64,000 nt of DNA from a virus: IMG/VR virus record IMGVR_UViG_3300045988_050655; one strand, written 5' to 3'. The notes under the pieces are model-generated. The model saw only the letters and a list, made by a program, of their open reading frames with translations, was not told where the DNA came from and did no database searches. Within the stretch, counting starts at the first letter, position 1. Every line of letters begins with the position of its first letter. This document shows positions 11,740 to 34,884 of the stretch, one piece after another. The position numbers were made by a program, and so were the translations under genes.

Positions 11740-11744
11740 TATGA

Positions 11745-13098: not shown

Positions 13099-13150
13099 TC
13101 ATATAAACTCCTCAACTAGGAAAAAATATTTTCCCAACTAGAAAAGTAAA

Positions 13151-13552
13151 ATGGCAGAAATAACTAGCGAACAGAAGTTGTATGTGCTACTGAAATATAA
13201 GAAAGAGCGGACAAAGAAGGAAGAGAAGATTCTTTCTATATTAAATGAGAAGGCAAATCTAGGCTCTGCTGATTTAGAGGAAGCGGACAAAGAATGCTGT
13301 AATCAAAAGTGGCTAAGCATAGTTCACGTAGTAGAAGAATTGGGTTATACAACAAAGTGCTCTCACAGAATAGAACTATCTGAGTCTGGTGAATCTCAGA
13401 TAGAAAAGTTCTGGAGAGAATCTAAGTATAACCCTGATAATGCGTGGAAGTCTAGAGTTGTAAAATTGTCTTCTGTAATTACGGCAATAATCTCGTTAGT
13501 ATATTTCCTAGCGTGGTTATGCCAATTAATACAAAACTCAGTAAGAAAATAA
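13151..13552 (+). CDS. C-terminally anchored protein, unknown function
   Basis: 133 aa. C-terminal TM is VVKLSSVITAIISLVYFLAWLCQLI. Confidence 0.45.
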   Translation: MAEITSEQKLYVLLKYKKERTKKEEKILSILNEKANLGSADLEEADKECCNQKWLSIVHVVEELGYTTKCSHRIELSESGESQIEKFWRESKYNPDNAWKSRVVKLSSVITAIISLVYFLAWLCQLIQNSVRK

Positions 13553-13679
13553 TGATGTTCAATAATATCTTTATGTATCTTATGTCTTCTTTCATAAGCC
13601 AATAATTTAAAAGTTTATGTGGCAAAGTTACGGCTTTCTCCTGAGAATCAGGCACAAATTACATAGTTTAACTTTTAAT

Positions 13680-13719
13680 CTCTGCAAAGTTTGCAGCAAA
13701 CGTTGCAAACCTTGCAGAG
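13680..13719. terminator. 40-bp imperfect palindrome between convergent genes (bidirectional terminator candidate)
   Basis: ctctgcaaag-tttgcagcaaacgttgcaaa-ccttgcagag. The outer 10-mers are 9/10 complementary and the inner part is also self-complementary. Confidence 0.45.
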
Positions 13720-13729
13720 ACTAAGAGTT

Positions 13730-13762
13730 GGTATGGAGAGGGTACGGAGCGGGTACGGAGAG
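13730..13762. repeat. 11-bp direct repeat x3
   Basis: ggtatggagag / ggtacggagcg / ggtacggagag, ending 3 nt before the integrase stop codon (13766). Confidence 0.8.
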
Positions 13763-13765
13763 GGT

Positions 13766-14929
13766 CTAGTTCTTGTCGAAGAACTTATCAATGAGTCCCA
13801 TTGCATCATTCTTTTTCTTGTCTATAATCTTGGCATAAATCTCGGTGGTGGCGATTCTTGTATGCCCCATCAACTTGCTGGTAGTGTAGATGTCTGCACC
13901 CAGTGTAAGCATCATGGTTCCAAAGGTATGCCTTGCAGTATGAAAGGTGATGTCCTTCTTGATGCCAGCGTTGGCTGCCCATACCTTGATATGAGTGAGA
14001 ACCGTCTGTTCGCATCCCATACCATTGAAGATGAACTCGTTTCCGTCCTGCTCAGGCAACCATTCTATAGCCTTGCCTGACAGATTGTAGGAAACCATCT
14101 TGTTGGTCTTCTTCTGTATGATAGAAAGATGCCATGACTTGGTTCCGTCCTCGTTGGTCACTTCCCTGATGTCCGACCATTTCAGTCTCCTGATGTCCGA
14201 GATACGCAAACCGCAAAAGCAGGAGAACATAAATGCCTGCTTGATAACTGGAACCTTGCATTCTGTTTCTGCCAGTTTCTTCACCTCCTCAATATCCAAG
14301 AAAACCCTACTTGTTTCAGGTTTCTTTGGCTTCTCTCGCTTATCCACCTCGCTGAATGGATTCTTGTATATCATTCCACTTTTCACGGCTCTGCTGAGCA
14401 TTTCATTGAGGTGGTTGCAATACATAATCTTGGTGTAGCTGGAAAGCGGCTCTCCATTGCTCTTCTTGGTGTTGTTCAGGAACTCAATGAATCCCACACA
14501 ATACTTCTTGTCAATGCTAGATAGCTTGATGTTATCTCCCTTGTAGGCGATGAGTTGCTTTCGGGTGCATTCTATCTGTGCTGCGATGCGGCTTGGAGAC
14601 TGCGATGTCTTCATCTTGTAGGTCTTGAAGTTGTCTATCCAGTCCATGAGCTTCATCTTGCTCTTGACGGATATGATACCCGAAATGCTATTCTTGATGT
14701 CCAGTACTCTCTGAGCCTTGATAACATTGGCGGTAACCATAGTTTCAGCATTCTTTCTTCTTGCCTCTGCCTTACCTCTACCCACTTCTGGTACGATGTA
14801 GAGTTTCAGGAACTCATAGGTTCTCTTGCCGTCCTTGTAGATGTCCAGATAGACACTCTTGTTTCCGTTGGCAAGTTCCTTGAATCTGATAGTGACAGGT
14901 TCTTTTTCGATTGTTTTCTTCCTTCCCAT
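13766..14929 (-). CDS. int: tyrosine recombinase / phage integrase
   Basis: FCGLRISDIRRLKW (Arg box) and FHTARHTFGTMMLTLGADIYTTSKLMGHTRIATTEIYAKI (H-x-x-R ... H ... Y). The N-terminus VTIRFKELANGNKSVYLDIYKDGKRTYEFLKLY is the Bacteroidota arm-binding type. ATG 14929 was chosen over the track start 15019. Confidence 0.9.
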   Translation of the reverse strand: MGRKKTIEKEPVTIRFKELANGNKSVYLDIYKDGKRTYEFLKLYIVPEVGRGKAEARRKNAETMVTANVIKAQRVLDIKNSISGIISVKSKMKLMDWIDNFKTYKMKTSQSPSRIAAQIECTRKQLIAYKGDNIKLSSIDKKYCVGFIEFLNNTKKSNGEPLSSYTKIMYCNHLNEMLSRAVKSGMIYKNPFSEVDKREKPKKPETSRVFLDIEEVKKLAETECKVPVIKQAFMFSCFCGLRISDIRRLKWSDIREVTNEDGTKSWHLSIIQKKTNKMVSYNLSGKAIEWLPEQDGNEFIFNGMGCEQTVLTHIKVWAANAGIKKDITFHTARHTFGTMMLTLGADIYTTSKLMGHTRIATTEIYAKIIDKKKNDAMGLIDKFFDKN

Positions 14930-14954
14930 AAGCCTTTCTTTTATAAATCTGCTG

Positions 14955-14962
14955 CAAAGATA
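14955..14962 (-). promoter_or_regulatory. Bacteroidota -7 box (TATCTTTG on minus strand) for int
   Basis: Plus strand reads caaagata. 26 nt upstream of ATG 14929. Confidence 0.5.
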
Positions 14963-14992
14963 AGCATTTTTTTTGTTACTCGCAAGTTTTGG

Positions 14993-15256
14993 GTAACAAA
15001 ATAGTAACAAAACTAACACGTATCAAATGTATAGGTAATGTATATCAAGCTTTCGGATAATTAATTTTTCAAAAAGGTAAAGCGTTGATAACTAAAAGTT
15101 TAGATATACATTTGATATACATTAGGTAACAGATAGCTTAAAGTGGGCTATCTACTATCTTTATTATTCCAATATGATTTATTTCACTAGTTAAACATCT
15201 GATTTATAGATAGTTATGAATTTCTTTGTTTTTAGTGAGTAACAAAATAGCAACAA
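14993..15256. repeat. 18-bp direct repeat pair gtaacaaaatag[t/c]aacaa
   Basis: Copies at 14993-15010 and 15239-15256 (17/18 identical). An inverted half-copy ttgttac lies at 14973-14979. Confidence 0.8.
15021..15124. repeat. four copies of the 8-mer TATACATT, two inverted plus two direct, each pair 11 bp apart
   Basis: aatgtata at 15026-15033 and 15037-15044. tatacatt at 15105-15112 and 15116-15123. The 13-bp tatcaaatgtata (15021-15033) is perfectly inverted at 15105-15117. Confidence 0.85.
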
Positions 15257-18948: not shown

Positions 18949-18956
18949 TATCTTTG
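18949..18956 (+). promoter_or_regulatory. Bacteroidota -7 box (TATCTTTG) for the giant-gene operon
   Basis: 31 nt upstream of ATG 18987. Confidence 0.5.
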
Positions 18957-20785: not shown

Positions 20786-23700
20786 ATGCCAGATAATGTA
20801 GATAAGTTATTTGAAATAATGCAGGCGAAAGGTGCTGCTAGTGATAGAGGTAAGTTCCGAAAAGTATTCTTGACTCCTGGCAATAAGGGGTATAAGATAA
20901 GAAAGGATATTTATGATGGACTCAGGGCAGACGGCATTATAGATAGTCCAACTTACGAGGATTTTAGACGAAAGCTAAGACTTGGTGGTACTCCAACAGT
21001 CAATAAGTATCGTCAGCAAATGTTTAACTCTGTTGACCCAAACAAGAGCAGAGCGTCAGAACTTACTAATAGAGCGGTAGGTCAGGCTGTAAGGGCAACC
21101 AACAATGTCCGTAAACCAGTAACCGCAAAGGTTGTGAATCGGAAAGGTAAGCCAATTGGAGAGGAGTTTGCCATTACTCCTGCCAAGACCGTAGAAGACC
21201 TTGATAGGGAGTATGCTCAGGAGACAACAAAGAACTGGGAGAATGAACTGCATGACCAGATGGCTGATGCCGACAAGGATGCAGCAAAGATTAGCGATAT
21301 GTTCAAGTCCTTCATCGGTTCTACTGATGAAGTAGGTAGTGTATGGGGTAACATGACTAGAGGTGGCGGTATCGCTGGTACTCCTCATAGTGTTACTACC
21401 AACAATGGCATCATGGAGAATACAGAAGCTCGACAAATTCTTGCTGCTGGTGATTACAATCGTAAGAGAAGAGAACTCTTGCAGTTGGAGCAGGATTCAA
21501 GAAATGGTGCAATCTTTGACAATCATTCTTTTTTTAGAGGAATGTATGATGCAGCCAAAGATACTGGATTCCTGACTGGCGGTGCATCTGACCTTATCAA
21601 TGCTGGTTCCTTGCTTGCAACCAAGCAGGATTTGGATAATGGTGTCCATACTGAAGCTGGTGATATGCTGATGCAGCAAGCGGTAAAGAATAGTAATGCA
21701 CAGAGTCAGTATGGTGACAATCAGGGATGGATGTACACTGGTGGTGTTATCACTACCAATATGGCTCCTTTTATGGTGCAGATTGGTAGTGCTGGATTTT
21801 CCAAGGGTATGAGTAACGCTATTGGTAAGGTAGTGCAGAGTGCAGCTTCCAAGGTCGCATTGGGTATGATGAATAAGGCAATTGGATTGACAAGTACTCA
21901 TGTCGCAAACATCATAGGTAAAATGACTGGTCTTACTACCAAAGCATTCGGCAAGGCTATCCAGTATGGAATTGTAGGTGCTGCCCAAGCTAATACGGTT
22001 GGTCTTGGAAATGTGGCTAACGATGTGATTAACCGCTATACTGGTCAGGTCTATCAGGATGAGCAGGGCAACTACAAGTTTGGCACATTTGATAGTGATG
22101 GCAATCTTGTGCATGAAGGCGGTGAAGACTTCCTTACTGCTCTCGTAAAGGGTGAGGCGGCTCAGACTATTGAGTTTGCTACTGAGTTGGCTGGCGGTGG
22201 AATTGATGCTGCTGGTACTGCCCTGAAGAACTTCGTTACCAAAGGTGGCAAGAAAATTATCAACAAGTACAACATGGAGAATGTTTCCAAGGTGATTGAC
22301 TTCTTGCTTAATAATAAGGTGGCAAAGAATGCAAGATACTTGAAGGCTGGTGCTGACAGAACTCTTGGCAAGGTTGAAGTGAATAGTATTGTCGGTGAGT
22401 CTCTGGAGGAAGAGTTGGGTATCATCGCCAACACGGTCTTTACTGGTGATAATAAAATCTCAGACTTGTGGGATGAAAAGCAGCAGTCTCAGATATGGGG
22501 CGGCATGCTCTTGTCTATCGGATTGATGAAGGGTGCTGTTGCTCCTTTCCATGCTTATAATGCCAAGCAGTATTATTCCTATAAGCATAAGCTAGACAAG
22601 GCTGATGTGAACTTGTCTCAGTTGCTCGGTAAGGAGAAGTGGGAAGAACTCCGTAATCAGATTGATACTACAACAAACGATGATATGCCTGAAATGGTAA
22701 ACAGAATCAATCGTGATGTTGCTCTTGGTAAGAACAGACAGCCAGTGCGTGAGTATATTCAGAACTTGCTCATCATGCGTGGATATGACATTGGCAACAT
22801 GCTTGCTGCAAAGAAGGCAGTTGAAGACAAGGGTGAAGGTGTCTCTGTGAAGAATATGGAGAAGAATCAGGCATACCAGCAGGGTCGTGATGCTTATGGC
22901 TACGATACTCATGAGATTCAGTTAGACCAAGAAGACAAACAAAAGTCTCTTGCCCAACTTCTCGGTATCTCAGAGCAGCAGTTGGCATCCATGAGTGATG
23001 AGGAACTTGATGCACTCTCTGGTCGTGATGATAATATTGATAGGGCTATCTATGACTACCAGTTATCTACTGCTCGCTATGAAGGTGTGATTGATAATGC
23101 AAGAGACCAGATAGACTTGGAGGTTCAGAGGGCAGCACAAGCGGTTGATATGTACACAGACAAGTCTCGCAATACAATCCGAAATGCTACCATCAAGGCT
23201 ACTGGCGGCTTGGAAGACTATGGTGTTTATATTATTAATGGTAATATCGCTACCCATGAAGATGGTTCCATTGATATTAGTAATAGTGATGATATGATTC
23301 TGTATTATGACCCAACTACCAATACGGTTGAGCATGCTGATGCCATGATGTTTGCTGAACTGGGTAGTGAGGAGAATGCTGATGAAGTGAGAAGTCAGGC
23401 TATGGCTGATGCCAAGGAGAAGGCTATCAAAGAGACTACTGGTATCATTGATGGTGTTGTAGAGGTAGGTACTCAGTTCAAGACCGTTGATGCAGATGGA
23501 ACAGAACATACTTATGAAGTACTCGCTGATAATGGTGATGGTACTGCCATGATTACTATTGATGGCAACATTCCAACTGAACTTGTCAAGGGTGAGAATG
23601 TAAATATTCCAGTCTCGTTTGAAGAGTTGCAGAAGATGAAGGATGAGTCTGACCAGCAGAGATTGCAAGCGGCAAAGGCTCAGCGAGAACAGATGGAGAA

Positions 23701-26700
23701 GGAGCGTGCTGAGCAGCAAAATCAGGAGACAGAAGAGACTCAACCTTCATTTGACTTCAAAAAGATACTCAATGATAATGGTAACGTGGTGCTTGCTGAT
23801 GTACTCGACGAGGATGGCAATACAAGATACCCAAACTCAAAGTTATTTCTCATCCGTGATTCTGGTGCTAAAGCTAAGGTGGTAGAGTTGAAGAGTGATG
23901 GCACTCTTAAATCTCATGCCGTTGATAAGAAAGACGTGAGAACTGCTACTACTATGTCGCTCGATGAATACAAACAAGCTATGGCTGAATCCTCAATGAT
24001 AGAGGATAATAGTGGAGAGAATAGAGGTGAGATAGAGGCTGAAACTTCAATAATAGAGGATGCTGAACCAATAGGAACTGGTGCGTTTGGCAACATCTAT
24101 AATCAGTTTAAGGGCAAAGTTAAGGAGGCTTTCAACTTCCTGATGAGTCATAAGAGTGGAGATTTACTTGGTGTCTTCCATCGTGATGATGTTGGAGACA
24201 TTGACCTTGTATGGGGTAACGAAAAGATGGGTTTGGCTCATATCCTTGGAAAGCATGTAGGTGAAGGAAAAGACTTTGAGACTCCAGATGATGCTATTGA
24301 AATGATTGAGAATGTTATTAATAGCGGTCGTATCTTCCAAGATAATCAGAATCGCTATACATTAATGCTTGATGGTGTAGGTGTAGGTATCAGAAAGAGT
24401 TTCGATGGCGAGAAAAAGAATTGGATTGTGACTGCTGTTGACTTTAATAGAAGTCAAGAAGAAAAAGGAATCGTCACCAATCCCACGTCAACCTCTCATG
24501 GTGTTACTGAGTCAGAGTCTGCTGCTGCGCTCAACGATTCCGATGGCAAAGATATTAATAATTCTGCAAACGACAATGAAAATAATGAAAGTTTAACATT
24601 TGAGGATGGTACTCCTATCCCAGTTGATGAGAATGGAGAGACTGACCTTAGCCAGACTGATGCTGCTCATGCTGCTGAGTGGTATGATAATAACCTCGGT
24701 GAGGATGCTGACGATTGGTTGGATGGAGAAATCAAGAAGGCTAAGAAGGTATTGGAGCAAGCACAGAATAAGAAGGTGACTGGCACTAAGCCTTCTGAGT
24801 TGGTTGCAAGCAAGAAAGAGAAGGAAGCTGCCATTGCTGATGCCCAAGCACATTATGACTCTGCAATCTCTATTCGTGATTCGTTGAAGGAAAGAAGAAT
24901 TGCCAAGGAAGAGAATACTGCTGAGGGTAGGAAGGAACTCATTGAGAAGGAAAGAAGAAAGTTCGCTCGCTTGAAGAGTGCGGTGAAGGATGATGCTGAG
25001 GCGGTTGCTCAACTCTATAAGGAGACGGTTGGTTCGTTGCTGCATCGTCTTTACGATGGTACTGGCATTGACGTGACAGATACGATTCCGCTTACTGCTG
25101 AGGAGTATGTGGCTAGTAACCTCGGTGCTCACTCTCTCAACTATGAGGGAACAGAGACAAGCAAGGGTGTTAAGCAGGAGACTGGTTTGAACAGAGAAGA
25201 CTTTGCTAAGACTCAGTTGCTGGCTGCTGATGGCAAGGGAACTACTATTGATAACCTTGTGCATAGTCTGTGGGAGAATCGTCCATCTAACCTTGATTCG
25301 CTCGGCACACAAGAGATTCGTAACGCTTTGCTCAGCGTAATCACTAGCGGTTTCAAGGCATCGGAAGCAAGAAACTATATAGAGAATCTTCGTATTGCTC
25401 AGGCTGAGAACTTCCTTGAAGAGCAGAAGAAGGCTGCTGACAATGCCGCATTCGCTGAGGAGAATAAGGCTGAATCAGAACAACAGACTGAAACGGCTAC
25501 TGAATCTGAGGAGAAGACTGGGGAAGACAACTCTGATGAGATTAATGATGAGGATAATGAGAAGATAAATGAGCAGACAAATGAGAATATAAATGCTCCT
25601 GAGGTTCCTGAGGATGCAACGGAAGAGAATCCACTTGGCTTACAACTTAGCGAAGATAAGGTTCCGTTTGAAATTGAAGGAGGAAAGAGCGGTGAGACAT
25701 ATAACATAAATGATAATGAAGACAGACAGAGACTTATCAATGACAATAAGGTGGATGATAAGGACATCTTGGATATTGATATGCCTAAACATGTACACAA
25801 GGCTATTAAGGAGTTGTGTAAGAAGATGGGATTGAAGGTTCAGTTCCTTTATATGGGCGCAAGGTCAAATGGTTGGATAGAGAATGGAACCATGTATCTT
25901 GCTCTGGACACAGAGATGGCTACCCAGTTTGTGTTTGGTCACGAAATGACTCATGCAATCAAGCAGAAGAATCCTGAGGCATACAAGGAACTCGTTAAGG
26001 TTGCCATGGCTGTAACGACAAAGAAGAAGTTTGAGGAAGACTTGGCAAAGGTTTACCAAAACTATCATGGTATCTCTGGATATAACAATGTTGATGATTA
26101 CGTTGAGGAGGTTGTTGCTGACAACTTAGGAAAGTTCATTAATAACTTTGACTTGGCACAGAAGTTTTCTCTTCGTCTCAATCATCCTGTATTGGCAACG
26201 ATTCTTCATGCTATACAGAAGATAAAGAGTCTGTTATATGGAGACTTCTACAAGTCTGTAGATGCTTTGGAGCGTATCGTTGAAAAGGCATACGTTGATA
26301 CTGCCAAGGGTGAGGTGACGAACTCTGAGACTGGCGAAGATGTTTCCTTCTCTCTCCGTCAAAAGCCTGAACCTAAGAAGAAGGGCATCGGCTACAAGGT
26401 GTTCGTGTTGAAGGATGGCAAACTCTATCCACCAATGGTAGCGAACCCTGATGGTGCTGCTACTCCAGTAGGTGTATGGCTTGATGCTGATGCGGCTCCT
26501 ATTGCTGGAGAAAGCAAGACTGGCAGACCTCAGGTTAAGCAGGGCGGCAAGGGAACACAAGGCGGTAGCGGTAAGCTAGCCTATAGACCAGGCTGGCATC
26601 TTGGTGTTGTGCCTTATGCTATCCAGTTCAACCGCAAGGATGCTGAGGGAAACAAGACTCTCTTCCCTAAGAACTTTGTCTTCGCTGAGGTGGAGTATGC

Positions 26701-29700
26701 TGCTGATGTTGATTATCAGGAGGAAGCTCGCCAAGAGGGTATCAATCCATCGGGTAAGTATCAGCATTCTCTCGCTGGCTTGAAACATTTGCCTACTGAT
26801 GGCTATTATATGTATCGTACCAACCCGAACCCTGAGACTGACCCTTGGGTGATTACTGGTGCGATGAAGGTGAACCGCATCTTGACCAGAGCAGAGCAAG
26901 CAGAACTTGTGAAGAAGACTGGTCGTGAACCTCAGCAGATTCAGGAGGGCGATATTGTTACTGATGATGTTGTGAACAGCATCAATCAGGAGATAGCTGA
27001 TGCCCCTAAGTTCTCGTTGAAAGACCCATTCAAGATGTCTGACAATGAGAAGAAGGAGCGTGGTGATAGACTTATTAAGGCTCCAGCTATTAATGTGGCT
27101 AGTGGTGTCATTCAGAAGACTGCTGACTTGTCTGCAAGAAAGGCTGCTGAAAAGTGGTGGAATGAGAATGTAGCAAAACCTCTCGTCTTCAATACAGAGG
27201 TTGGTGATGTGGAGATTAATGATAAATCTATCAAGGATTCACTTGCTCATAGATACAGACAACCTAAGTTGGATGCCATTACATCATTACCTGATGGATT
27301 TGGAAATGCGGTGTACCTTGGTACAATGAAGGACTTCACTAGGGATGGTGATGTAAACAATCACTATTTCGCTTATCCTATCAATTATGATGGGCAGAGA
27401 AACTATGTGTTCTGTCGTGCTATGCAGGATGCTAACAAGAATAGATTATATGTGCATGAGGTGTTTGTTGCTGATAAAATAAACGAGGGCAATACCCTTC
27501 AAACCACAGCGTCACAGCCTCATGGAGGTATTGCCCTCTACAAAGAAATTCTTGCGAATGTTCTTTCTGCTGCAAAGATAGACAATTCTTCTGAAACTAC
27601 CAAGGAAAATGGCGAAAAGTTTTCATTGAAGGACGAAAAAACTCTTGCAGGAGTGCATAACATTACTGAGGAGAAGCTGAGAAAGGCTTTGAAACTGGGT
27701 GGCTTTGCCAATCCTTCTTTGGCTGTAATTGATACTAACAAGACTGGTCACGACAACTTTGGAGAGATTTCCTTCATCGCTCCTTCTGCCCTTGTAGATA
27801 AGCGTACTGGCAAGACTGCTGGTACTTGGATAACTGATGCCTATACTCAGCGTTATCCTTCCGTAGAACGAGAAATGAGCGAGAAAGGCAGTCAGAAGTT
27901 TAGAGACTGGGTTGATAGCCTTGAATACCCAAGTGAAGCTAAGGCTGAGATTAAGAGACAGGCAGAGGATGCTCTGAGCAACAATAATGCTCCTGCTTGG
28001 GAATTGATGTACTTGAAGGAAAAGGGTATTGACATTAAGGAGTATGATTCAAGAATTGATTATCGCTGGAAAGAAATTATCAAAGACCATCCAACTGTTG
28101 AGGACATTCTGAATAGTATGAATACTGACCCTGAACTGAATGAAAAGGTTACAGGTCTCGCTAAGCATATCATCGTTGACCCTATACGGGGAAAGATTTC
28201 GTTGGAGGTGAGAAGAAAGATATATGAAGAGACTGGTGTTAAGATGAGTTCTCTCAATCCACAAGTAAGAAAACAGACTAAGGAAATCTTTGAGCGTGAC
28301 TATGCGCCAAGTCTTCTTAACAAGAATGGTACACCAAAGAAATCCGATGTAAAGAAGGTTGTTGAACAGATGGTGAAGGAGCACAACGACACAAAGAAGT
28401 ATGACTTCTATCTGTCTAAGGTGAAGGCTAGTAATTACGTCAACAAGAATGGTCTTTATGATGATTACATCAGATGGCAGGAGAACAAACTGGATGAGTT
28501 CGGAACAAAGAACCGTATCTTCCGTGGCTATACTAAGGATGGTTCCAGAAAGTATGTGCCTGAGACTCTTGAAAATGTTTCAAAGGCTATGAGGGAAGAA
28601 GCAGATGGGCAGACCAATGGAAGCGAATATACCTCGTTTGGTAGCTTTATCGCAAAGTTGGCTAGTCGTGTTGATTCTACAGACGAAATGCGTGCCAACA
28701 AGGATAAGTTGTCTTCTAATAAGGATAAGGAAGAATTTTACGAGAAATGGTCGGACGTATATTATGACCTTGCCAAGTTCTTTTATAATGATGTGTTCTA
28801 TGGCGAGCAGAGACTTCACGATATTGTATTGCAGTCTGACCCTAAGAAGTATGCCAAGAAAGAATATGGCATTACCCTTACTCCTACCTTCATGAAGAAG
28901 CTGGATGCCTTGAAGAATGCAGTACAGACAGAGTTGAAGAGTGCGTACTTTGAGACTAAGTACAACAGACCTCTCCGTCTAAACGAGTTTGCTGCTGCCG
29001 TGGTTCCTGATAACTTGGGCGAAGATGTACGCAAGGGAATAGAGAATGCTGGCTTACCAATGTATGACTACGACCCGAATAAGGAAGGTGACCGCAGCCG
29101 TGCCTTCAATGAAGCTATCAATAGTAGAGACAATATCAAATTCTCTCTGAAATCTATGATGGCGAAACCTGAGGGATGGAAACAAGCCAACAAGAAGGCT
29201 ATACATATTGCAGAAGCTATTGAGCGTGACCCTAAGTTCTCCTTGAAGAACCTTGATGGAACTCTCATTAAGGCTGGAACATATTTTAGCGGTGGCGGTC
29301 TTGTTGAGGAAGGTTTGAAGGGTATCATCGACCCAGTGGTGGCAGTTGAGTATGACGAGAAGATAAGCGGTGTTTATCGCAACAACTTCGGGCAGCACAT
29401 CGTTACTGCTGATGTTCGTGATGTTGACCCAAGAGAGTTGGTTAAGCTGATTGATGGCGAGGTAGAGTACTTCCATGCCAGCCCAGTCTGCAAGAACTAC
29501 TCTCAGGCAAAGAGTAACCATGCTGAGGTGGAACTTGACAAGGAGACTGCTGCTAGTACTGCCGAGTTCATCAATGCTATCAATCCAAAGGTGGTGACAA
29601 TCGAGAATGTGAAGGGATATAAGGATTCGGATGCCATGAAGACTATTACCGATGCTCTGGATGCCAACGGCTACACTTGGGATGCAGATGTGTATAACGC

Positions 29701-32700
29701 TGCTGACTATGGCGGCTACACCAACCGAGAGAGATTGATTGTCCGTGCGGTTCGTGATGGCAAACTCCCTGAAAAGCCAAAGAAGATGGCACGCAAGAGC
29801 GGATGGTATGAAGCTGTGGCTGATATTATCCCGACCCTGACCGAGAAGAAGAATGGTGTGGCTCCTTGGATGGATATTCGATTGAAGGCTGATGGCATTG
29901 ACTGGCGAAACATTGACAAGCCATTATATGTGATGGGTAGTGCCTATGCTGACGGAAAGGTTCCTCATGCCTTCGCTGATGAACTGCTGCCTACACTCCG
30001 AACCAAGAGCGGTGATGTGATTGTGATGCCTGATGGCAAGGTATATCGTGCCATGGGCAGAGTGCTCGCTAGAGTATCAGGAGTGAGCGATGATTACAAG
30101 ATGCCATTCTCTGAGAATCTGAGCCATACCATCATCGGCAACGGAATCCCTACTCAGTTGACCGAGCATGTTATTGCTCCTCTGCTTACTGGCTCCGACC
30201 CTAAGTTTAGCATCCGTACCTATCACGGCACTGGTGCTAGCTTTGACAAGTTCGATTTATCTCATGCCTTGGAAGGCGAGGGAAGTGAGAGCTTCGGTCA
30301 TGGTGTGTATGTTACCAACTCTAGCAAGATTGGACGTGAGTATGCCCAGAGAGCAAAGAATAGAAAGATGGAAGACCTCTATAAAAATATGCGCTACCCT
30401 GATGGGGTGAAGGGCGATATTTTCAAGAGAAGAGTCTTTGGTGAAATGGTGAACGATGTGGCTACTGGCGGTAGTGTGGCAAGTGCCAAGGAGTTTGCCA
30501 AGAAACGTGTCGGTGCTGATGCCAATGATATTCAGCGTACCCTTGAAAACTTGAAGGATAGAGAGAAGGGAACTGAGTATGAACAGAACTTGAAGGATAG
30601 ACTTGCAGAGTATAAAGAAGGCTTGAAGTGGATTGATTCTCTTGATGAAGATTATCTTACCCAAGGGAACGCTAACAGATACGATGTGGATATTCCTGAT
30701 GATAACGGTGAAAATTACCTTGGATGGAATGAGTCTCAAAACTTCCCATTGGAAAAATGGTACAGACTATGGGAAATAACTCATGAAGGGTTTAATGAAA
30801 ACGAGTATTTCAAAGATGGTGGAGCGAGATATGATATAGATAGGATTGAGCGTATCACCCAAATGAAACTTGAATCGCCAGAGAATGGTATGCAGAGACT
30901 TCCTACATTAAAAGGTGAAGCATTGTATCATGCTTTGGAAGACTTCTTCAACCGTGAAAGACCTTCGTATGGTGCAGAATTAGCATCAAGGGCTTTGAGT
31001 GAAATAGGTTTTGTCGGTATCAAGTACCCTGCTGGAATGATTCATGGCGGTGCTGAGGAAGGAGATTACAACTATGTGATATTCGATGAGAACAATGCCA
31101 ATATCGTGGGTAATACCCGATTCTCCTTGCGCTATGACCAGTTTGAACACGACTTGAACCAGTGGAAGAAGGATAATAATCTGCCTAAGGATGCCCAGCG
31201 ACCAACCATCCCACAACGCAACGCTGGCGAGAGTGCTGCTGCATTCTTGAAGAGAGTGGATGAGTACCGCAAGCAGATGGCTCTTTGGAAGACTGCTCCA
31301 ACATACGAGCAGCATCTTCTGAGTGATGATACTGCCCTTGGAGAGTTCAACCGAGAGTTGCAGCGTGGTTCCGTGCTGAAACGTATCGCCTTCCAAGATA
31401 GTATGCTGGCTATCCGCAAGGCTCAGGAAGCTATCATGAAGGAAGTTGGTGTTGACCGCCTGAATATGGCTGAGGATGCCTATACTGCCGAGAACCGGAG
31501 TCACGGCAAGGGAAAGAATGAGTTTGAGGAGTACAATAATGAGTTCTTGCAGCCATTGAGAAAGGCTTATCACCAGATGAAGAAGATACTTGGTGATAGC
31601 TACGATAATGTCCGTATCTACATGATGGCTAAGCATGGCTTGGAGCGTGATGCCCAGATGGCATTCAAGAAGTCACTGGATGCTGACTTTGAGGATGTGG
31701 CTCAGAGAAGTGCGGCATACAGGGCTTACAAGGGCGATATGAACCGTATTACCAATGATAGCGATTTGGAGTTTGGAAGAGTGGATTTCACTACTTGGAG
31801 GCAGAGAGATAATGCTCTCAGAACGAAATATTCTCCTTCCTATATGGACTATCGTTATGATGAGAATGGTATCGCCTACGATTATTCAGGCTTGTCGGCT
31901 CTCTTCGGTGGCTCTGACTTTGAGGAAGCTGCCCACAAACTGGTAAGGGATATTGAGAGTAGTCATGTAGCTGAGGTGCAAGACCTCTGGAATGCTACGA
32001 ATGCGGCTACCAAGAAGATTCTCCGTGATGGCTATAAGGCTGGTATGATGAGCAAAGATACTTATCAGTATGTGCGAGATATGTATAGCCATTATATTCC
32101 TCTCCGTGGCTGGGATGGCACTACTGCCGACCAAGTATGGGACTATATTGGTGGTGGCAAGGGTGCGTTCAATCAGACCTTGAAAACGGCACATGGACGA
32201 ACCTCTATTGCTGATGACCCTATCGCCTACATCGAGAATATGGCAGAAAGTGGAATCCTGCTGAACAACAAGAACTGGGTGAAGCAACACCTGATGCTCT
32301 TGGCTCAGAATCATCCAACTTCCCTGCTGACCCTGAGCAAGGCTTGGTACGTGAAGAGTACGGATGCCAACGGCAACGAGGAGTGGATTCCTGCTACACT
32401 TCAGATTACTTCTCATATGAATAGCAATCAGGTGAAGGCTGCTATTGATGCTTTCGAGCAGAAGATGGAGAATATGGCGCAGACTGGCGATGCTACCCAG
32501 CAGAGAGAAGGCTTGAATATTGCCTATCCTCAGACTCATAGCGAGGAGAGAGAACATGAGGTAAGAGTGATGAAGGATGGCGAGGAGTATATTATCTATG
32601 TGAATGGTGACCCTCAGTTGGCTCAGGCGATGAACAATACCAGAGCACACCGAGTGAGAGAAATTCAGAGCGGCAAACTGGATAGGGCTGCTGCTTGGTT

Positions 32701-34711
32701 GGGCAGAAAGATGGCTGCTGCCTATACCAGTCTTTCACCTCTCTTCATCCCTTCCAACTACTTCCGAGACCTGACCATGACGCTGGCATCTACCGCTATT
32801 CGTGAGGATGGAAAATACAACTATCTGCTCAGAAAGAATCTGGCTACCTCTTGGAATCTCGGTTTCATGTTGAGAGACTATCAGAATGGCAAGTTGAGAG
32901 AGAAGGTAAGCAACGGAAACGCTACTCCTAAGGAACAGATGTTCTATGACTTCATGATGAATGGTGGCGAGACTGGCTTTGTATCTTCACTTGATGTGGA
33001 AGACTTGAAGAAGAAATTCAAGAATGACTTGAAGGATTTGGATAGATGGAAGGCGAACCCAGTTAAGGTTGGGCACACCATCATGGATGGCATTGAGTTC
33101 CTGAACAGAGCAATCGAGGATAGTAACCGATTTGCGGTTTACATGACCTCTATTCAGTATGGACGTTCCATTGATGAGGCTGTGAATGATGCCAAGGACG
33201 TTACCCTGAACTTCAACCGCAAGGGTACTGGCGAATACGGCTGGCAGATGGTTAGAAATCTCTATCTCTTCATCAACCCAGCGGTACAGAGTTTGCAGAC
33301 TCTTGGTGCGCTTGCCAAGCATCATCCTTTCAAGTTCACGGCTGTTACTGCATCATGGTTGGTGAGTGGTGTGCTGGTTCCTATCGTTAACGCTGCCCTG
33401 ATGAGTCTGTTGGGCGGTGATGATGATAAGGATAAGTACTGGCAGTTCACCAAGTGGGATAGACGAAACAACCTTATCATGTGGGTTCCTACTACTCATG
33501 AGTTCGTGAAGATTCCGCTTGCTCAGGAGTTCCGTGCTTTCTATGGAATAGGCGATATGATTGCATCCAAGATGATGGGTGGCGAGTTGGCTGAGGAGAG
33601 TTGGAGTCAGTATGCAGAAGACTTGCTCGGTCAGGTGGTGGATATGCTTCCGCTCGACCCGACTGGATATGACGGCAATATTGCGGTCAGCCTGATGCCG
33701 AATGCTATTCGCCCAGTCTTTGAGTTGGCTTTCAATGTTGACTTCACTGGCAAGCCATTATTCAAGGAGACAGAGTATAACAAGTATGACCCGAACTTTA
33801 CCAAGGCATACGTGGGTACTCCTGATTGGTTGGTTCGTGCATCCAAGATGGTTAACTCAATCGGAAACGACTATCCTGATGTGCAGCAGAACAGCATTGA
33901 TGCTTTCGGTGACCCAAGATACAATCTGAATAACCCTGCTGTGGTTGACCATGTATTGTCTTCTTATCTCGGTGGTGCTTACACCATGGGCAGTCAGGTG
34001 CTCGGTGTTCTTACCAAGTCACTCAACGACCCGAAGGAAATCAAGGTGGCTGATATTCCATTATTCAGCAAGTTCGTCAGCAATCCTGATGATAGACCGG
34101 TTACTAAGAAACAAGGTGATGAGTTCTGGAATATGAAGGAGAACCACGACCGTGCAGCCAATACCCTGAGCAAGTTGAAGAAACAAGCTAAGGTGGATGG
34201 CGATTACTCTATGCTGGAGCGGTTCTACGGCTCAGAGGAGTATAAGCAGTATAAGCAGGATGATGTGAAGGTGAAGAAGTATGAGGAAGACAAGAAGAAG
34301 GAACGTGCTGAGGAGAGTGGGGAGGAGTATAGACCTAACAAGTTGAATGCCGAGGATATATATAAGGCTCATGCTACTCCGAAGGATGATTTCGAGGACT
34401 TGAAACTGAAACAACTCTACACTAAACTGAACGGATTCAAGACTTCCTATGACCTCTTGGTTGATACGGCTCCTAGTCAGAGCGATGCCTACTACAACAC
34501 CAACAAGTCTGCCATTGATGCCATTGACGAGATTTCCCTTGATAAGCAGGAGATTTCCGAGTTGAAGAAAGGTTTCTTGGATGATGGCAAGGATGCCTAC
34601 AACGCTGAGGACATGAAACAGATTCGTGAACTGAGAAAGAAGATTCTTGCTGTACTGGAGAAGGCTAACAAGGTAGTTGTGGCTAACCAGAAGGCGAAGA
34701 CTGAGAAGTAA
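20786..34711 (+). CDS. giant polyvalent (multi-effector) protein, 4,641 aa
   Basis: One uninterrupted 13,926-nt ORF. Embedded HExxH zincin, C5-MTase, ART-like and barnase/EndoU-like modules, plus several unknown modules separated by a recurring (K/R)FS(L/I)(K/R) motif. Confidence 0.85.
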   Translation: MPDNVDKLFEIMQAKGAASDRGKFRKVFLTPGNKGYKIRKDIYDGLRADGIIDSPTYEDFRRKLRLGGTPTVNKYRQQMFNSVDPNKSRASELTNRAVGQAVRATNNVRKPVTAKVVNRKGKPIGEEFAITPAKTVEDLDREYAQETTKNWENELHDQMADADKDAAKISDMFKSFIGSTDEVGSVWGNMTRGGGIAGTPHSVTTNNGIMENTEARQILAAGDYNRKRRELLQLEQDSRNGAIFDNHSFFRGMYDAAKDTGFLTGGASDLINAGSLLATKQDLDNGVHTEAGDMLMQQAVKNSNAQSQYGDNQGWMYTGGVITTNMAPFMVQIGSAGFSKGMSNAIGKVVQSAASKVALGMMNKAIGLTSTHVANIIGKMTGLTTKAFGKAIQYGIVGAAQANTVGLGNVANDVINRYTGQVYQDEQGNYKFGTFDSDGNLVHEGGEDFLTALVKGEAAQTIEFATELAGGGIDAAGTALKNFVTKGGKKIINKYNMENVSKVIDFLLNNKVAKNARYLKAGADRTLGKVEVNSIVGESLEEELGIIANTVFTGDNKISDLWDEKQQSQIWGGMLLSIGLMKGAVAPFHAYNAKQYYSYKHKLDKADVNLSQLLGKEKWEELRNQIDTTTNDDMPEMVNRINRDVALGKNRQPVREYIQNLLIMRGYDIGNMLAAKKAVEDKGEGVSVKNMEKNQAYQQGRDAYGYDTHEIQLDQEDKQKSLAQLLGISEQQLASMSDEELDALSGRDDNIDRAIYDYQLSTARYEGVIDNARDQIDLEVQRAAQAVDMYTDKSRNTIRNATIKATGGLEDYGVYIINGNIATHEDGSIDISNSDDMILYYDPTTNTVEHADAMMFAELGSEENADEVRSQAMADAKEKAIKETTGIIDGVVEVGTQFKTVDADGTEHTYEVLADNGDGTAMITIDGNIPTELVKGENVNIPVSFEELQKMKDESDQQRLQAAKAQREQMEKERAEQQNQETEETQPSFDFKKILNDNGNVVLADVLDEDGNTRYPNSKLFLIRDSGAKAKVVELKSDGTLKSHAVDKKDVRTATTMSLDEYKQAMAESSMIEDNSGENRGEIEAETSIIEDAEPIGTGAFGNIYNQFKGKVKEAFNFLMSHKSGDLLGVFHRDDVGDIDLVWGNEKMGLAHILGKHVGEGKDFETPDDAIEMIENVINSGRIFQDNQNRYTLMLDGVGVGIRKSFDGEKKNWIVTAVDFNRSQEEKGIVTNPTSTSHGVTESESAAALNDSDGKDINNSANDNENNESLTFEDGTPIPVDENGETDLSQTDAAHAAEWYDNNLGEDADDWLDGEIKKAKKVLEQAQNKKVTGTKPSELVASKKEKEAAIADAQAHYDSAISIRDSLKERRIAKEENTAEGRKELIEKERRKFARLKSAVKDDAEAVAQLYKETVGSLLHRLYDGTGIDVTDTIPLTAEEYVASNLGAHSLNYEGTETSKGVKQETGLNREDFAKTQLLAADGKGTTIDNLVHSLWENRPSNLDSLGTQEIRNALLSVITSGFKASEARNYIENLRIAQAENFLEEQKKAADNAAFAEENKAESEQQTETATESEEKTGEDNSDEINDEDNEKINEQTNENINAPEVPEDATEENPLGLQLSEDKVPFEIEGGKSGETYNINDNEDRQRLINDNKVDDKDILDIDMPKHVHKAIKELCKKMGLKVQFLYMGARSNGWIENGTMYLALDTEMATQFVFGHEMTHAIKQKNPEAYKELVKVAMAVTTKKKFEEDLAKVYQNYHGISGYNNVDDYVEEVVADNLGKFINNFDLAQKFSLRLNHPVLATILHAIQKIKSLLYGDFYKSVDALERIVEKAYVDTAKGEVTNSETGEDVSFSLRQKPEPKKKGIGYKVFVLKDGKLYPPMVANPDGAATPVGVWLDADAAPIAGESKTGRPQVKQGGKGTQGGSGKLAYRPGWHLGVVPYAIQFNRKDAEGNKTLFPKNFVFAEVEYAADVDYQEEARQEGINPSGKYQHSLAGLKHLPTDGYYMYRTNPNPETDPWVITGAMKVNRILTRAEQAELVKKTGREPQQIQEGDIVTDDVVNSINQEIADAPKFSLKDPFKMSDNEKKERGDRLIKAPAINVASGVIQKTADLSARKAAEKWWNENVAKPLVFNTEVGDVEINDKSIKDSLAHRYRQPKLDAITSLPDGFGNAVYLGTMKDFTRDGDVNNHYFAYPINYDGQRNYVFCRAMQDANKNRLYVHEVFVADKINEGNTLQTTASQPHGGIALYKEILANVLSAAKIDNSSETTKENGEKFSLKDEKTLAGVHNITEEKLRKALKLGGFANPSLAVIDTNKTGHDNFGEISFIAPSALVDKRTGKTAGTWITDAYTQRYPSVEREMSEKGSQKFRDWVDSLEYPSEAKAEIKRQAEDALSNNNAPAWELMYLKEKGIDIKEYDSRIDYRWKEIIKDHPTVEDILNSMNTDPELNEKVTGLAKHIIVDPIRGKISLEVRRKIYEETGVKMSSLNPQVRKQTKEIFERDYAPSLLNKNGTPKKSDVKKVVEQMVKEHNDTKKYDFYLSKVKASNYVNKNGLYDDYIRWQENKLDEFGTKNRIFRGYTKDGSRKYVPETLENVSKAMREEADGQTNGSEYTSFGSFIAKLASRVDSTDEMRANKDKLSSNKDKEEFYEKWSDVYYDLAKFFYNDVFYGEQRLHDIVLQSDPKKYAKKEYGITLTPTFMKKLDALKNAVQTELKSAYFETKYNRPLRLNEFAAAVVPDNLGEDVRKGIENAGLPMYDYDPNKEGDRSRAFNEAINSRDNIKFSLKSMMAKPEGWKQANKKAIHIAEAIERDPKFSLKNLDGTLIKAGTYFSGGGLVEEGLKGIIDPVVAVEYDEKISGVYRNNFGQHIVTADVRDVDPRELVKLIDGEVEYFHASPVCKNYSQAKSNHAEVELDKETAASTAEFINAINPKVVTIENVKGYKDSDAMKTITDALDANGYTWDADVYNAADYGGYTNRERLIVRAVRDGKLPEKPKKMARKSGWYEAVADIIPTLTEKKNGVAPWMDIRLKADGIDWRNIDKPLYVMGSAYADGKVPHAFADELLPTLRTKSGDVIVMPDGKVYRAMGRVLARVSGVSDDYKMPFSENLSHTIIGNGIPTQLTEHVIAPLLTGSDPKFSIRTYHGTGASFDKFDLSHALEGEGSESFGHGVYVTNSSKIGREYAQRAKNRKMEDLYKNMRYPDGVKGDIFKRRVFGEMVNDVATGGSVASAKEFAKKRVGADANDIQRTLENLKDREKGTEYEQNLKDRLAEYKEGLKWIDSLDEDYLTQGNANRYDVDIPDDNGENYLGWNESQNFPLEKWYRLWEITHEGFNENEYFKDGGARYDIDRIERITQMKLESPENGMQRLPTLKGEALYHALEDFFNRERPSYGAELASRALSEIGFVGIKYPAGMIHGGAEEGDYNYVIFDENNANIVGNTRFSLRYDQFEHDLNQWKKDNNLPKDAQRPTIPQRNAGESAAAFLKRVDEYRKQMALWKTAPTYEQHLLSDDTALGEFNRELQRGSVLKRIAFQDSMLAIRKAQEAIMKEVGVDRLNMAEDAYTAENRSHGKGKNEFEEYNNEFLQPLRKAYHQMKKILGDSYDNVRIYMMAKHGLERDAQMAFKKSLDADFEDVAQRSAAYRAYKGDMNRITNDSDLEFGRVDFTTWRQRDNALRTKYSPSYMDYRYDENGIAYDYSGLSALFGGSDFEEAAHKLVRDIESSHVAEVQDLWNATNAATKKILRDGYKAGMMSKDTYQYVRDMYSHYIPLRGWDGTTADQVWDYIGGGKGAFNQTLKTAHGRTSIADDPIAYIENMAESGILLNNKNWVKQHLMLLAQNHPTSLLTLSKAWYVKSTDANGNEEWIPATLQITSHMNSNQVKAAIDAFEQKMENMAQTGDATQQREGLNIAYPQTHSEEREHEVRVMKDGEEYIIYVNGDPQLAQAMNNTRAHRVREIQSGKLDRAAAWLGRKMAAAYTSLSPLFIPSNYFRDLTMTLASTAIREDGKYNYLLRKNLATSWNLGFMLRDYQNGKLREKVSNGNATPKEQMFYDFMMNGGETGFVSSLDVEDLKKKFKNDLKDLDRWKANPVKVGHTIMDGIEFLNRAIEDSNRFAVYMTSIQYGRSIDEAVNDAKDVTLNFNRKGTGEYGWQMVRNLYLFINPAVQSLQTLGALAKHHPFKFTAVTASWLVSGVLVPIVNAALMSLLGGDDDKDKYWQFTKWDRRNNLIMWVPTTHEFVKIPLAQEFRAFYGIGDMIASKMMGGELAEESWSQYAEDLLGQVVDMLPLDPTGYDGNIAVSLMPNAIRPVFELAFNVDFTGKPLFKETEYNKYDPNFTKAYVGTPDWLVRASKMVNSIGNDYPDVQQNSIDAFGDPRYNLNNPAVVDHVLSSYLGGAYTMGSQVLGVLTKSLNDPKEIKVADIPLFSKFVSNPDDRPVTKKQGDEFWNMKENHDRAANTLSKLKKQAKVDGDYSMLERFYGSEEYKQYKQDDVKVKKYEEDKKKERAEESGEEYRPNKLNAEDIYKAHATPKDDFEDLKLKQLYTKLNGFKTSYDLLVDTAPSQSDAYYNTNKSAIDAIDEISLDKQEISELKKGFLDDGKDAYNAEDMKQIRELRKKILAVLEKANKVVVANQKAKTEK
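24065..24450 (+). other. domain: PBECR-like (barnase/EndoU/RelE-type) module of the giant protein
   Basis: aa ~1094-1221. GDIDLVWGNEKMGLAHILGKHVGEGKDF. Assigned from memory of polyvalent-protein nuclease modules only. Confidence 0.35.
25772..26340 (+). other. domain: zincin metallopeptidase (MPTase-PolyVal-like)
   Basis: FVFGHEMTHAIKQ, with the HExxH at nt 25940-25954 (H1719, E1720, H1723). Confidence 0.55.
29234..30202 (+). other. domain: C5 cytosine DNA methyltransferase
   Basis: YFSGGGL (I), HASPVCKNYS (IV, Cys2902), TIENVKGY (VI), TNRERLIVRAV (VIII), IIGNGIPTQL (X). Confidence 0.75.
30203..31117 (+). other. domain: ADP-ribosyltransferase-like (H-Y-E, ART-PolyVal-like) with a long insert
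   Basis: TYHGTGASFDKFD, FGHGVYVTNSSKIGREYA ... GFVGIKYPAG..GDYNYVIFDENN. Confidence 0.45.
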
Positions 34712-34723
34712 TACATATATGAC

Positions 34724-34756
34724 TATCCCCTGAAAGTGCTGGGCTTTCGGGGGATA
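34724..34756 (+). terminator. 13-bp stem hairpin after the giant gene
   Basis: tatcccctgaaag-tgctggg-ctttcgggggata (one G-U pair). No clear U tract follows. Confidence 0.45.
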
Positions 34757-34876: not shown

Positions 34877-34884
34877 TATATTTG
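34877..34884 (+). promoter_or_regulatory. Bacteroidota -7 box (TATATTTG)
   Basis: 84 nt upstream of ATG 34968. Confidence 0.4.

Follow-up and report, generated by a model that had tools for sequence, protein, structure and literature searches.

A giant phage polyvalent protein whose cassettes end in a repeated junction peptide and are reshuffled among close relatives

Polyvalent proteins, in which unrelated effector domains are strung together in one chain, are widespread and largely untested, and it is an open question how one chain of about 0.5 MDa might serve many targets. Here, we describe such a protein of 4,641 amino acids (aa), encoded at positions 20786..34711 (+) of a 64,000-nucleotide (nt) stretch of viral DNA (IMG/VR record IMGVR_UViG_3300045988_050655), hereafter the window. 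Its central part is an array of cassettes, every one of which ends in the core peptide [KR]-[FY]-S-[LI]-[KR], and these cassettes are reshuffled at the junctions among close relatives. We read the giant as a phage-type polyvalent protein, tripartite in layout and the third and largest product of an ejection-protein operon, for which we propose self-cut cassettes; the probability of this reading as a whole we put at roughly 0.6. We have high confidence in the polyvalent-protein identity and the membership in an ejection operon, while the cutting is advanced tentatively. The coupling of one particular zincin with a uniform junction peptide, in combination with such extreme permutation of cassettes, appears to be undescribed: no shared junction peptide of polyvalent proteins is described in the literature that we searched, and the word ‘linker’ occurs 0 times in Iyer et al. 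(2017; PMC5512222).

The giant gene and its tripartite layout

The gene is a single open reading frame (ORF) with an ATG start and zero internal stops in its translation. A search with the C-terminal 1,198 aa brought up relatives in 210 IMG/VR stretches, of which the 80 that were kept are 89-97% identical. In nearly all of the ~70 IMG/VR loci on contigs of sufficient length, the frame is open through all 10 kb upstream (at least 4,531 aa). Since it stays open across these independent viral contigs, the uninterrupted 13,926-nt frame that a preliminary description of this DNA had reported is real, and an assembly chimera is rejected. A representative library holds giants of 5,137 and 5,452 aa with C-terminal modules 95-96% identical. 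Megablast of the gene against phage and plasmid collections gave no match, and its relatives are visible at the protein level only.

The protein consists of a divergent N-terminal region with a PBECR1 domain and a gluzincin-like metallopeptidase, a central cassette array and a conserved C-terminal module of ~1,190 aa (Table 1). In profile searches, five Pfam domains of the polyvalent or effector type scored above their curated cut-offs, which bears out the polyvalent-protein architecture proposed in the preliminary description. In the N-terminal region, Pfam LPD14 matches aa 465-602 below its cut-off (E 0.002 and 3e-4 in two scans), and hydropathy marks a weak hydrophobic segment at aa 570-588. 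The module previously likened to PBECR families is PBECR1 itself; in the window protein it lies in the N-terminal region, outside the cassette array, and most relatives have no counterpart of window aa ~1092-1268, carrying a ~35% identical PBECR1 in their cassette array instead. The acidic low-complexity spacer noted earlier proved to be the first of two.

Table 1. Features of the giant protein, its operon and the rest of the window. Residues refer to the giant protein.
Feature	Residues (aa)	Position (nt)	Strand	Remark
Candidate Bacteroidetes-type -7 promoter box TATCTTTG		18949-18956	+	Fits TAnnTTTG; divergent intergenic region
Operon gene 1, 223 aa		18987..19658	+	N-terminal Gly-rich hydrophobic segment; T7 gp14-like (Pfam T7_gp14, just below cut-off)
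Operon gene 2, 370 aa		19662..20774	+	Syntenic partner of giant gene; homologues directly upstream of giants in three Bacteroides phages
N-terminal region	1-1090	20786..24055	+	46-55% identity to relatives
PBECR1, predicted RNase	1131-1222	24176..24451	+	Pfam PF18809, 1.3e-16, 61.4 bits (cut-off 27.6)
Acidic low-complexity spacer	1251-1316	24536..24733	+	Net charge -18 or lower per 60 aa
Second acidic spacer	1550-1633	25433-25684	+	Net charge -18 or lower per 60 aa
Gluzincin-like metallopeptidase module	1620-1858	25643..26359	+	HEMTH at aa 1719-1723 (nt 25940-25954)
Junction copies, FS[LIV][KR]	Starts at 1794, 1855, 2076, 2279, 2786, 2818, 3141, 3446	Starts at 26165, 26348, 27011, 27620, 29141, 29237, 30206, 31121	+	12 nt each
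Cassette C3 (GYKVF..RPGWH)	1859-2079	26360..27022	+	phrog_30118 over aa 1870-2047, 1.9e-33
LPD3 cassette	2080-2282	27023..27631	+	Pfam PF18798 at aa 2117-2222, 1.4e-11, 45 bits (cut-off 27)
PBECR5 cassette, predicted RNase	2283-2448, extension to 2789	27632..29152	+	Pfam PF18814, 2e-19, 70.9 bits
32-aa spacer cassette	2790-2821	29153..29248	+	Junction motif on both sides
C5 cytosine DNA methyltransferase cassette (predicted)	2822-3144	29249..30217	+	Pfam DNA_methylase
Cassette C0	3145-3449	30218..31132	+	Long helical insert; weak ART-PolyVal match
Conserved C-terminal module (putative anchor/ejection module)	3450-4641	31133..34708	+	phrog_14770 and LPD38
Hydrophobic segment	4183-4212	33332-33421	+	Core aa 4192-4210, Kyte-Doolittle (KD) 2.02
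LPD38	4216-4426	33431-34063	+	Pfam, 5.3e-23, 82.5 bits, above cut-off
Inverted repeat ATCCCCTGAAAG...CTTTCGGGGGAT		34725..34755	+	Read from sequence; just 3' of stop codon
tRNA-Met		8852-8929	-
Anti-repressor Ant		9540-10433	-	PHROG/Pfam scan
Tyrosine integrase		13766-15019	-	PHROG/Pfam scan
Tail fibre, 1,277 aa		40974-44807	-	PHROG/Pfam scan
Large terminase		46139-48367	-	PHROG/Pfam scan
SU10-type major capsid protein		50165-51706		PHROG/Pfam scan
Portal		52874-54910		PHROG/Pfam scan
Endolysin		56118-56675		PHROG/Pfam scan

A junction peptide at the borders of the cassettes

The motif FS[LIV][KR] occurs eight times in the giant protein against 0.19 copies expected from shuffling, and seven of the eight copies sit exactly at the border between two modules; at 26348..26359, for example, FSLR (aa 1855-1858) closes the metallopeptidase module. 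Elsewhere in the window, open frames of at least 60 aa on both strands hold one copy, in a 61-aa frame at 62208. The 245 unique contexts found in relatives give the consensus [DNH]-[TPVI]-[KR]-F-S-[LI]-[KR], with RFSLA, RYSLK and SYSLR among the variants, and a Prevotella prophage whose giant has a C-terminus only 73% identical carries 15 copies (0.43 expected), mostly as EK-YSLK. Nothing but the five-residue core is universal: the linkers ahead of it differ and travel with either neighbour, and longer ones such as TAKENGEKFSLK and NRKAEIAGEEPKFSLK move with the neighbouring cassettes. In the AlphaFold models of two cassettes, C3 and C0, the junction falls among the lowest-confidence residues at the termini.

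The motif is restricted to one lineage. No equivalent was found in the giants of the Bacteroides phages BKO1-TP3, BS-TP4 and BF1-TP2 nor, among 134 representative giants, outside the clade with C-termini at least ~62% identical, and of the representative giants listed, every one with a C-terminal module no more than 41% identical has zero copies.

Reshuffling of cassettes among close relatives

When 81 giants were split at the junction motif and the pieces clustered, 39 segment families were obtained, and those that can be named are all polyvalent-protein domains, viz., InPase, LPD13, LPD23, MuF_C, ART-PolyVal, PBECR1, PBECR5, LPD3 and C5 methylase. The 70 near-full-length relatives display 65 raw cassette orders, or 56 once composite clusters are merged and short spacers ignored; the C-termini of these shuffled relatives are nonetheless 89-97% identical. 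BLAST alignments to the window protein have 513 internal ends, of which 51% lie at most 6 aa from a motif, as against 4.4% for random positions. The order in the window (zincin tail, C3, LPD3, PBECR5, 32-aa spacer, methylase, C0, anchor) is unique among the sampled genomes. Mosaicism of polyvalent proteins has been noted earlier, with up to 50 domain combinations in the case of Helicobacter jhp1044 (PMC5512222). Both the junction peptide and the shuffling are new relative to the preliminary description.

Homology breakpoints that cluster at a short motif invite an explanation at the level of DNA, in which the motif would be the footprint of a recombination signal, or of repeated duplication of a linker, and play no role in the protein. 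The linkers TAKENGEKFSLK and NRKAEIAGEEPKFSLK, in travelling with cassettes, fit recombination within linkers, and the serine codons of the junctions, nearly all of which are TCN (96% vs 59% background), fit common descent. Nevertheless, across 293 unique junction DNAs, serine is encoded by all four TCN codons and leucine by six, with isoleucine in its place in some, while lysine swaps with arginine; as these codons vary freely and synonymously while the peptide is kept, the constraint lies on the peptide and not on the DNA. The diverged lineage that has exchanged phenylalanine for tyrosine still carries its 15 copies, and the universality of the core alone, behind linkers that differ, is the pattern of purifying selection on a peptide. 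On the strength of this codon analysis we judge a DNA-level recombination site unlikely, and the footprint explanation in general improbable.

The cassettes and their predicted activities

The first complete cassette, C3, corresponds to a GYKVF..RPGWH module of the preliminary description and is a genuine, strongly conserved and widespread phage domain. A protein search returned 460 metagenomic homologues at E ≤ 1e-5; most of the 120 listed show 45-98% identity where they match, and these 120 represent many domain contexts, the domain occurring in stand-alone proteins of ~300 aa or fused to DUF4406, Peptidase_S78_2, MuF_C, Zeta toxin, NUDIX or Eco57I. Its invariant residues include RPGWH and Y-x-Y-R-x-N-P, and an E-x-E is at least 90% conserved. 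The AlphaFold model is confident (pLDDT 90.6) and beta-rich; it has no significant neighbour in the PDB, and its BFVD matches are to uncharacterised viral proteins only. The top PDB matches (RES, PE-like toxins, diphtheria toxin and tankyrase) all have the ADP-ribosyltransferase (ART) fold, but with E ≥ 0.36 and TM scores ≤ 0.26 we do not claim that fold for C3. By itself, the domain would merit functional study.

Next come two modules that could not be named from the letters alone. They are now identified as LPD3 and as PBECR5, whereas the extension of the latter (aa 2449-2789) has no match and is unassigned. The spacer that follows belongs to a cluster (C7) of segments that are exactly 32 aa long in 30 of 30 cases, the window's included; in other relatives a 73-aa alternative (C6) occupies the slot.

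The methylase cassette had been described as a complete C5 cytosine methyltransferase, and so it appears: the DNA_methylase profile matches aa 2834-3130 (1.4e-27, 97.5 bits) over positions 7-319 of 324, and the cassette aligns with M.HhaI residues 36-314. The motifs FSGGG, SPVC, ENV, RER and GNG do not vary among 69 unique relatives. TIGR00675 scores 8e-19, below its own cut-off, and NCBIfam adds no match beyond dcm. With both the motif order and the profile match of a C5 cytosine DNA methyltransferase, the cassette is predicted to be such an enzyme. The window has a second, unrelated C5 methylase gene at 2206-3835 (-), apparently split by a gap of ~350 nt: ORF 3041-3835 covers DNA_methylase positions 2-227 of 324 (2.6e-52) and ORF 2206-2691 covers positions 254-322 (weak). 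It shares 41% identity over 64 aa only with the methylase cassette and may be a pseudogene or hold an insertion.

For C0, the preliminary description had proposed an H-Y-E ADP-ribosyltransferase, an assignment that is not confirmed. ART-PolyVal matches aa 3144-3241 over profile positions 8-99 of 140 at E 1.2e-5, but its 26.5 bits fall below the cut-off of 31.2, while genuine ART-PolyVal cassettes in relatives reach 84-89 bits; the alignment of C0 with these is weak (hhalign, 45 aa, E 0.03). The AlphaFold model (pLDDT 72) finds no ART neighbour in the PDB, only helical-bundle noise. Moreover, the ART of polyvalent proteins (Tox-ART-HYD2 clade) is H-Y-D, on strands 1, 2 and 5, not H-Y-E (Iyer et al., 2017; PMC5512222). 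The invariant residues of C0 comprise YHG, G-x-Y-V-T, Y3175, D3306, which has an ambiguous strand assignment, and N-YVIF.

The zincin and its association with the junction motif

The HExxH zincin pointed out in the preliminary description is highly constrained: GHEMTH is invariant in 71 of 71 relatives, variants with only 35-42% identity included, as is an EExxAD (EEVxAD) ~55 aa downstream. HExxH followed by ExxxD is the pattern of gluzincins such as thermolysin and neprilysin. The HEMTH...EExxAD arrangement also fits the peptidase MPTase as described for polyvalent proteins (PMC5512222). The sole family match is a weak one to Peptidase_M13 (E 0.0055), and a homologue search of a protein set returned 6 proteins only. 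Among 138 giants that share the C-terminal anchor, the HEMTH zincin is present in 12 of the 13 with at least five motif copies and in 2 of the 125 others, these two having 2 and 4 copies.

Many relatives possess another zincin, HEIQH, whose cassette also has LPD23 and weakly matches the DUF6782 metallopeptidase (e.g., L043:6299-7801). This cassette is entered via the variant junction RFSLA, and the window protein is without it.

The C-terminal module and probable delivery in the virion

The conserved module at the C-terminus matches phrog_14770, a giant-protein family of 3,427 positions, over aa 3536-4513 (2.5e-139). The hydrophobic hairpin noted earlier in this part corresponds to the segment directly ahead of LPD38. 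The module is 25-33% identical to that of ‘DarB-like’ giants from phages of Bacteroides, Ralstonia, Burkholderia and Vibrio and, the region around LPD38 included, also matches Stx-converting phages. An exhaustive HMMER search found it in 5,307 representative clusters, with E ≤ 1e-30 for 1,400; nearly every one of the best 150 of the 5,307 is a giant of 2.5-7.2 thousand residues that carries the module at its very C-terminal end. Against the PDB, the module profile returned coiled-coil noise only.

For three relatives there are experimental results. JC1 gp69 (4,515 aa), which matches window aa 4150-4450 in tblastn (E 4e-11, 96% covered), yielded 51 unique peptides from CsCl-purified virions (PMC9144972). 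Virions of phi24B contain large amounts of gp47, which combines LPD5, LPD1 and LPD38 with a MuF-C peptidase; the protein does not appear in the cryo-EM map, and a role in ejection has been proposed for it (bioRxiv 10.64898/2026.04.10.717836). PTXU04 gp25 (2,198 aa), in which LPD38 is the only signature, is needed for efficient infection. Because its C-terminal module is homologous to that of giants which mass spectrometry detected in purified virions (JC1 gp69 and phi24B gp47), we favour virion delivery of the window protein, with moderate to high confidence in its packaging. It is most likely an internal ejection protein that carries effector cargo: the C-terminal third would be a conserved and probably essential anchor/ejection module, and the rest cargo. 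The suggestion in the preliminary description that the protein is packaged and injected gains support from these virion homologues, while its ‘anti-defence tool kit’ stays an inference, and the extension of that label to the whole protein gives way to a probable ejection module in the C-terminal third.

The giants of BS-TP4, BKO1-TP3 and BF1-TP2 (5,391, 5,553 and 3,633 aa) likewise all end in LPD38, and their cargo differs: one Bacteroides-phage giant holds ddrB-ParB, InPase and an SNF2 helicase, and another InPase, ART-PolyVal and PBECR5. Directly ahead of the C-terminal module, where the window protein has its last FSLR junction, the three have an HExxH zincin (consensus LLHEAVAH).

A probable ejection-protein operon

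The giant gene begins 11 nt past the gene for a 370-aa protein, itself preceded by a smaller one; the preliminary description had called these two coiled-coil genes, and their position in the operon stands, but they are probably ejection-protein partners of the giant. Gene 1 matches Pfam T7_gp14 (PF24072) over the whole profile (E 9.8e-6), and its homologues lie upstream of the giants in BF1-TP2 and BS-TP4. Gene 2 has no Pfam or PHROG match, and its homologues lie directly upstream of the giants in BS-TP4, BKO1-TP3 and BF1-TP2. The order small gene, ~370-aa gene, giant gene, with homologous partners, is thus common to these phages. The box TATCTTTG, indicated earlier as a promoter at 18949, matches TAnnTTTG and stands 31 nt ahead of the ATG at 18987; we infer that it is the promoter of the three-gene operon. 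TAnnTTTG occurs 65 times in the window (47 expected); on the + strand just two boxes fall within the giant ORF, and the next intergenic one, at 34877-34884, is beyond the gene. The inverted repeat behind the stop codon, which is without a T-run, is a possible operon terminator.

Might the giant act late in the producing cell, without being injected, by methylating progeny DNA and degrading RNAs, with its place among virion genes reflecting timing only? The operon is of the late type, a C5 methylase could protect progeny DNA before packaging, and the Pfam scan recognised neither a packaging signal nor a MuF domain. However, homologues that share the C-terminal module are abundant in purified virions and the first gene of the operon resembles that for an internal virion protein, on account of which we regard this explanation as very improbable.

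A proposal of self-processing

That the junction motif co-occurs with the HEMTH zincin suggests a self-processing polyprotein, in which the giant's own gluzincin would cut the junctions and free up to eight effectors from the essential anchor, and in which the cassettes would be exchangeable with function preserved. We offer this as a tentative hypothesis, with odds well short of even. The junction looks like a processing site because the motif joins unrelated folds, bounds the 32-aa spacer, is under selection at the peptide level and is confined to one protein. The Pfam and PHROGs scans found no prohead protease in the head module. Iyer et al. had proposed that the MPTase processes polyvalent proteins into units, naming no sites (PMC5512222).

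By analogy with its homologues, the giant would be packed in the capsid and ejected along with the DNA, and its C-terminal module, together with the gp14-like and 370-aa partners, may provide an essential envelope-crossing or anchoring function. The cassettes, judging from what is known of their families, could be early-acting effectors, namely RNases directed against host or defence RNAs and possibly a protein modifier, and the methylase might shield incoming or progeny DNA from restriction. As the anatomy of the protein alone would have it, the built-in zincin could cut the junction peptides inside the capsid or after entry, thereby freeing separate enzymes, and the uniform grammar of the junctions would permit free swapping of cassettes by recombination.

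The same motif might instead be a neutral or structural linker grammar, for instance a short strand, or a motif for docking to a packaging chaperone, the portal or the capsid interior; the chain would then stay uncut and the zincin act on host targets, e.g., peptidoglycan-associated or defence proteins. Precedents exist, in that N4 vRNAP, ArdC and TraC1 have MPTase domains yet are transferred full-length, the phi24B study proposes an attack on the cell wall by the peptidase of gp47, and the related Bacteroides-phage giants have zincins and no recurrent junction motif. A linker of this kind accounts less readily for a motif that joins folds as unrelated as a methylase, RNases, the beta-rich C3 and helical spacers, and so lies outside any domain, that bounds a 32-aa spacer with no obvious fold, that falls in the low-confidence termini of the models and that tracks one particular type of zincin. 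We consider an uncut chain rather unlikely.

Several observations weigh against the overall reading or parts of it. The motif-rich giants all belong to one clade, and their link with the zincin could be shared ancestry. The zincin has no Pfam MPTase-PolyVal match and no PDB sequence match in profile searches, and N4 vRNAP, likewise a polyvalent protein that contains an MPTase, is packaged without processing (PMC5512222), so that a peptidase domain need not mean processing. Several head-module ORFs are without annotation, which leaves room for another protease. As to ejection, the giant has no lytic transglycosylase, lysozyme or SLT match in Pfam, PHROGs or NCBIfam, its Pfam scan shows no MuF portal-binding domain, and the gp14-like match of gene 1, at 26.0 bits, falls 1 bit short of the curated cut-off of 27. 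As to the cargo, motif IV of the methylase reads P-V-C in all 69 unique relatives, with valine for the usual proline before the catalytic cysteine, and C0, with its weak match, is possibly ART-like at best.

Relation to known systems

The giant resembles phage-type polyvalent proteins (PMC5512222) in carrying unrelated effector domains (PBECR1, PBECR5, LPD3 and LPD38) and a zincin in one chain, in the location of its gene beside virion genes and in the mosaic architectures of its relatives. It departs from them in having a C5 cytosine methylase for the usual adenine-methylase/helicase dyad, a zincin that escapes the MPTase-PolyVal profile, a junction peptide at every cassette border, and cassettes flanked by an N-terminal region and a C-terminal anchor that are both fixed.

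With the LPD38 giants of Bcep22-like, Ralstonia and 933W-like podophages, namely Bcep22 gp75, JC1 gp69 (4,515 aa), phi24B gp47 (2,811 aa) and PTXU04 gp25 (2,198 aa), it shares a homologous C-terminal ~700-1,000 aa, LPD38 included, and a comparable size and genome share. Known members have been found in virions, and one of them is essential. Identity is only ~25%, and the other domains of these giants are lytic transglycosylase, helicase and methylase, or else LPD5, LPD1 and MuF_C; the FS[LI][KR] junction motif is missing from them. The giant adds a member with a clade-specific feature to the LPD38-anchored giant polyvalent proteins.

The likeness to P1 DarB drawn in the preliminary description holds by analogy only. 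DarB too is large and capsid-packaged, with a DNA methylase thought to protect incoming DNA, and database records attach a ‘DarB-like’ label to homologues of the giant's C-terminal module. The resemblance is in the LPD38 region, not in the catalytic dyad of DarB: the Pfam scan at E ≤ 1 found no N6-adenine methylase, SF2 helicase or LPD36 in the giant, whereas BKO1-TP3 gp55, by contrast, has SNF2/Helicase_C. The giants of BKO1-TP3, BS-TP4 and BF1-TP2 are annotated as ‘DarB-like’ or hypothetical.

Like gp14-gp15-gp16 of T7 and gp7-gp20-gp16 of P22, the operon comprises three consecutive genes rising in size, the first product resembling T7 gp14 at a score just under the cut-off; here, the first and largest products have hydrophobic segments, and the capsid protein is of the podovirus SU10 type. 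Unlike the T7 proteins, the giant is 3.5 times the length of gp16, carries no transglycosylase and has enzyme cargo, and homology to T7 gp15 or gp16 was not detected among the operon products. The polyproteins of picornaviruses (3C) and flaviviruses (NS3) offer a functional analogy only: they too are long products with a built-in protease and a short peptide at the borders, but there is no sequence relationship, and here the candidate is a metalloprotease in a DNA phage and the cleavage hypothetical.

If the self-processing proposal is true, it would give the first defined cleavage code for polyvalent proteins, explain the release of injected effectors, show how unknown cassettes (C3, the 2449-2789 extension and C0) are to be divided into functional units, and provide a modular scaffold for phage protein delivery; the injected effectors of the lineage would then form a rapidly evolving, combinatorial arsenal, with at least 56 layouts represented in 70 genomes. 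The lineage, an abundant human-gut phage of Prevotella/Segatella, offers a concrete candidate code together with a protease to match it, and its cassette permutations amount to a natural library. Even without cleavage, the cassette catalogue is useful, and the distinction between a conserved, probably essential anchor and variable cargo corrects the misleading ‘DarB-like antirestriction’ label, for a C-terminal module that alone amounts to 5,307 clusters of giants.

The phage and its host

The virion genes that were said to neighbour the giant gene are there, with an SU10-type capsid protein, portal, terminase and tail fibre (Table 1). On the basis of its integrase and Ant genes the phage is a temperate tailed phage, and it is probably podovirus-like. 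The lysogeny region (8852-15019, with tRNA-Met, Ant and integrase) is low in GC, at 0.37-0.39 vs ~0.44 elsewhere. By portal (46-66% identity), its nearest cultured relatives are the Bacteroides phages BKO1-TP3, BS-TP4 and BF1-TP2. Prophage copies of the giant gene sit in uncultured Prevotella sp. UMGS1787 (93% identity), in the Prevotella metagenome-assembled genomes UBA746 and UBA1104 (73%) and in the chromosome of Segatella copri HDE04, and the natural host is therefore probably Prevotella/Segatella.

In S. copri HDE04, a 3,352-aa ORF stops 194 aa into the C-terminal module, possibly in a decayed prophage. The copy in Prevotella sp. UBA746 has its cassette array (ORF 88-10044) in one frame and its C-terminal module (ORF 9845-13561) in another, with a 200-nt overlap, which may be a sequencing frameshift in the assembled genome or a natural split of cargo and anchor.

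Elsewhere in the window, the tail-fibre gene has repeated matches to several tail-fibre PHROGs and lies in the lowest-GC part (0.33), and an 885-aa ORF at 59098-61755 (-) has as its sole match phrog_32516, a family of unknown function (2.9e-106).

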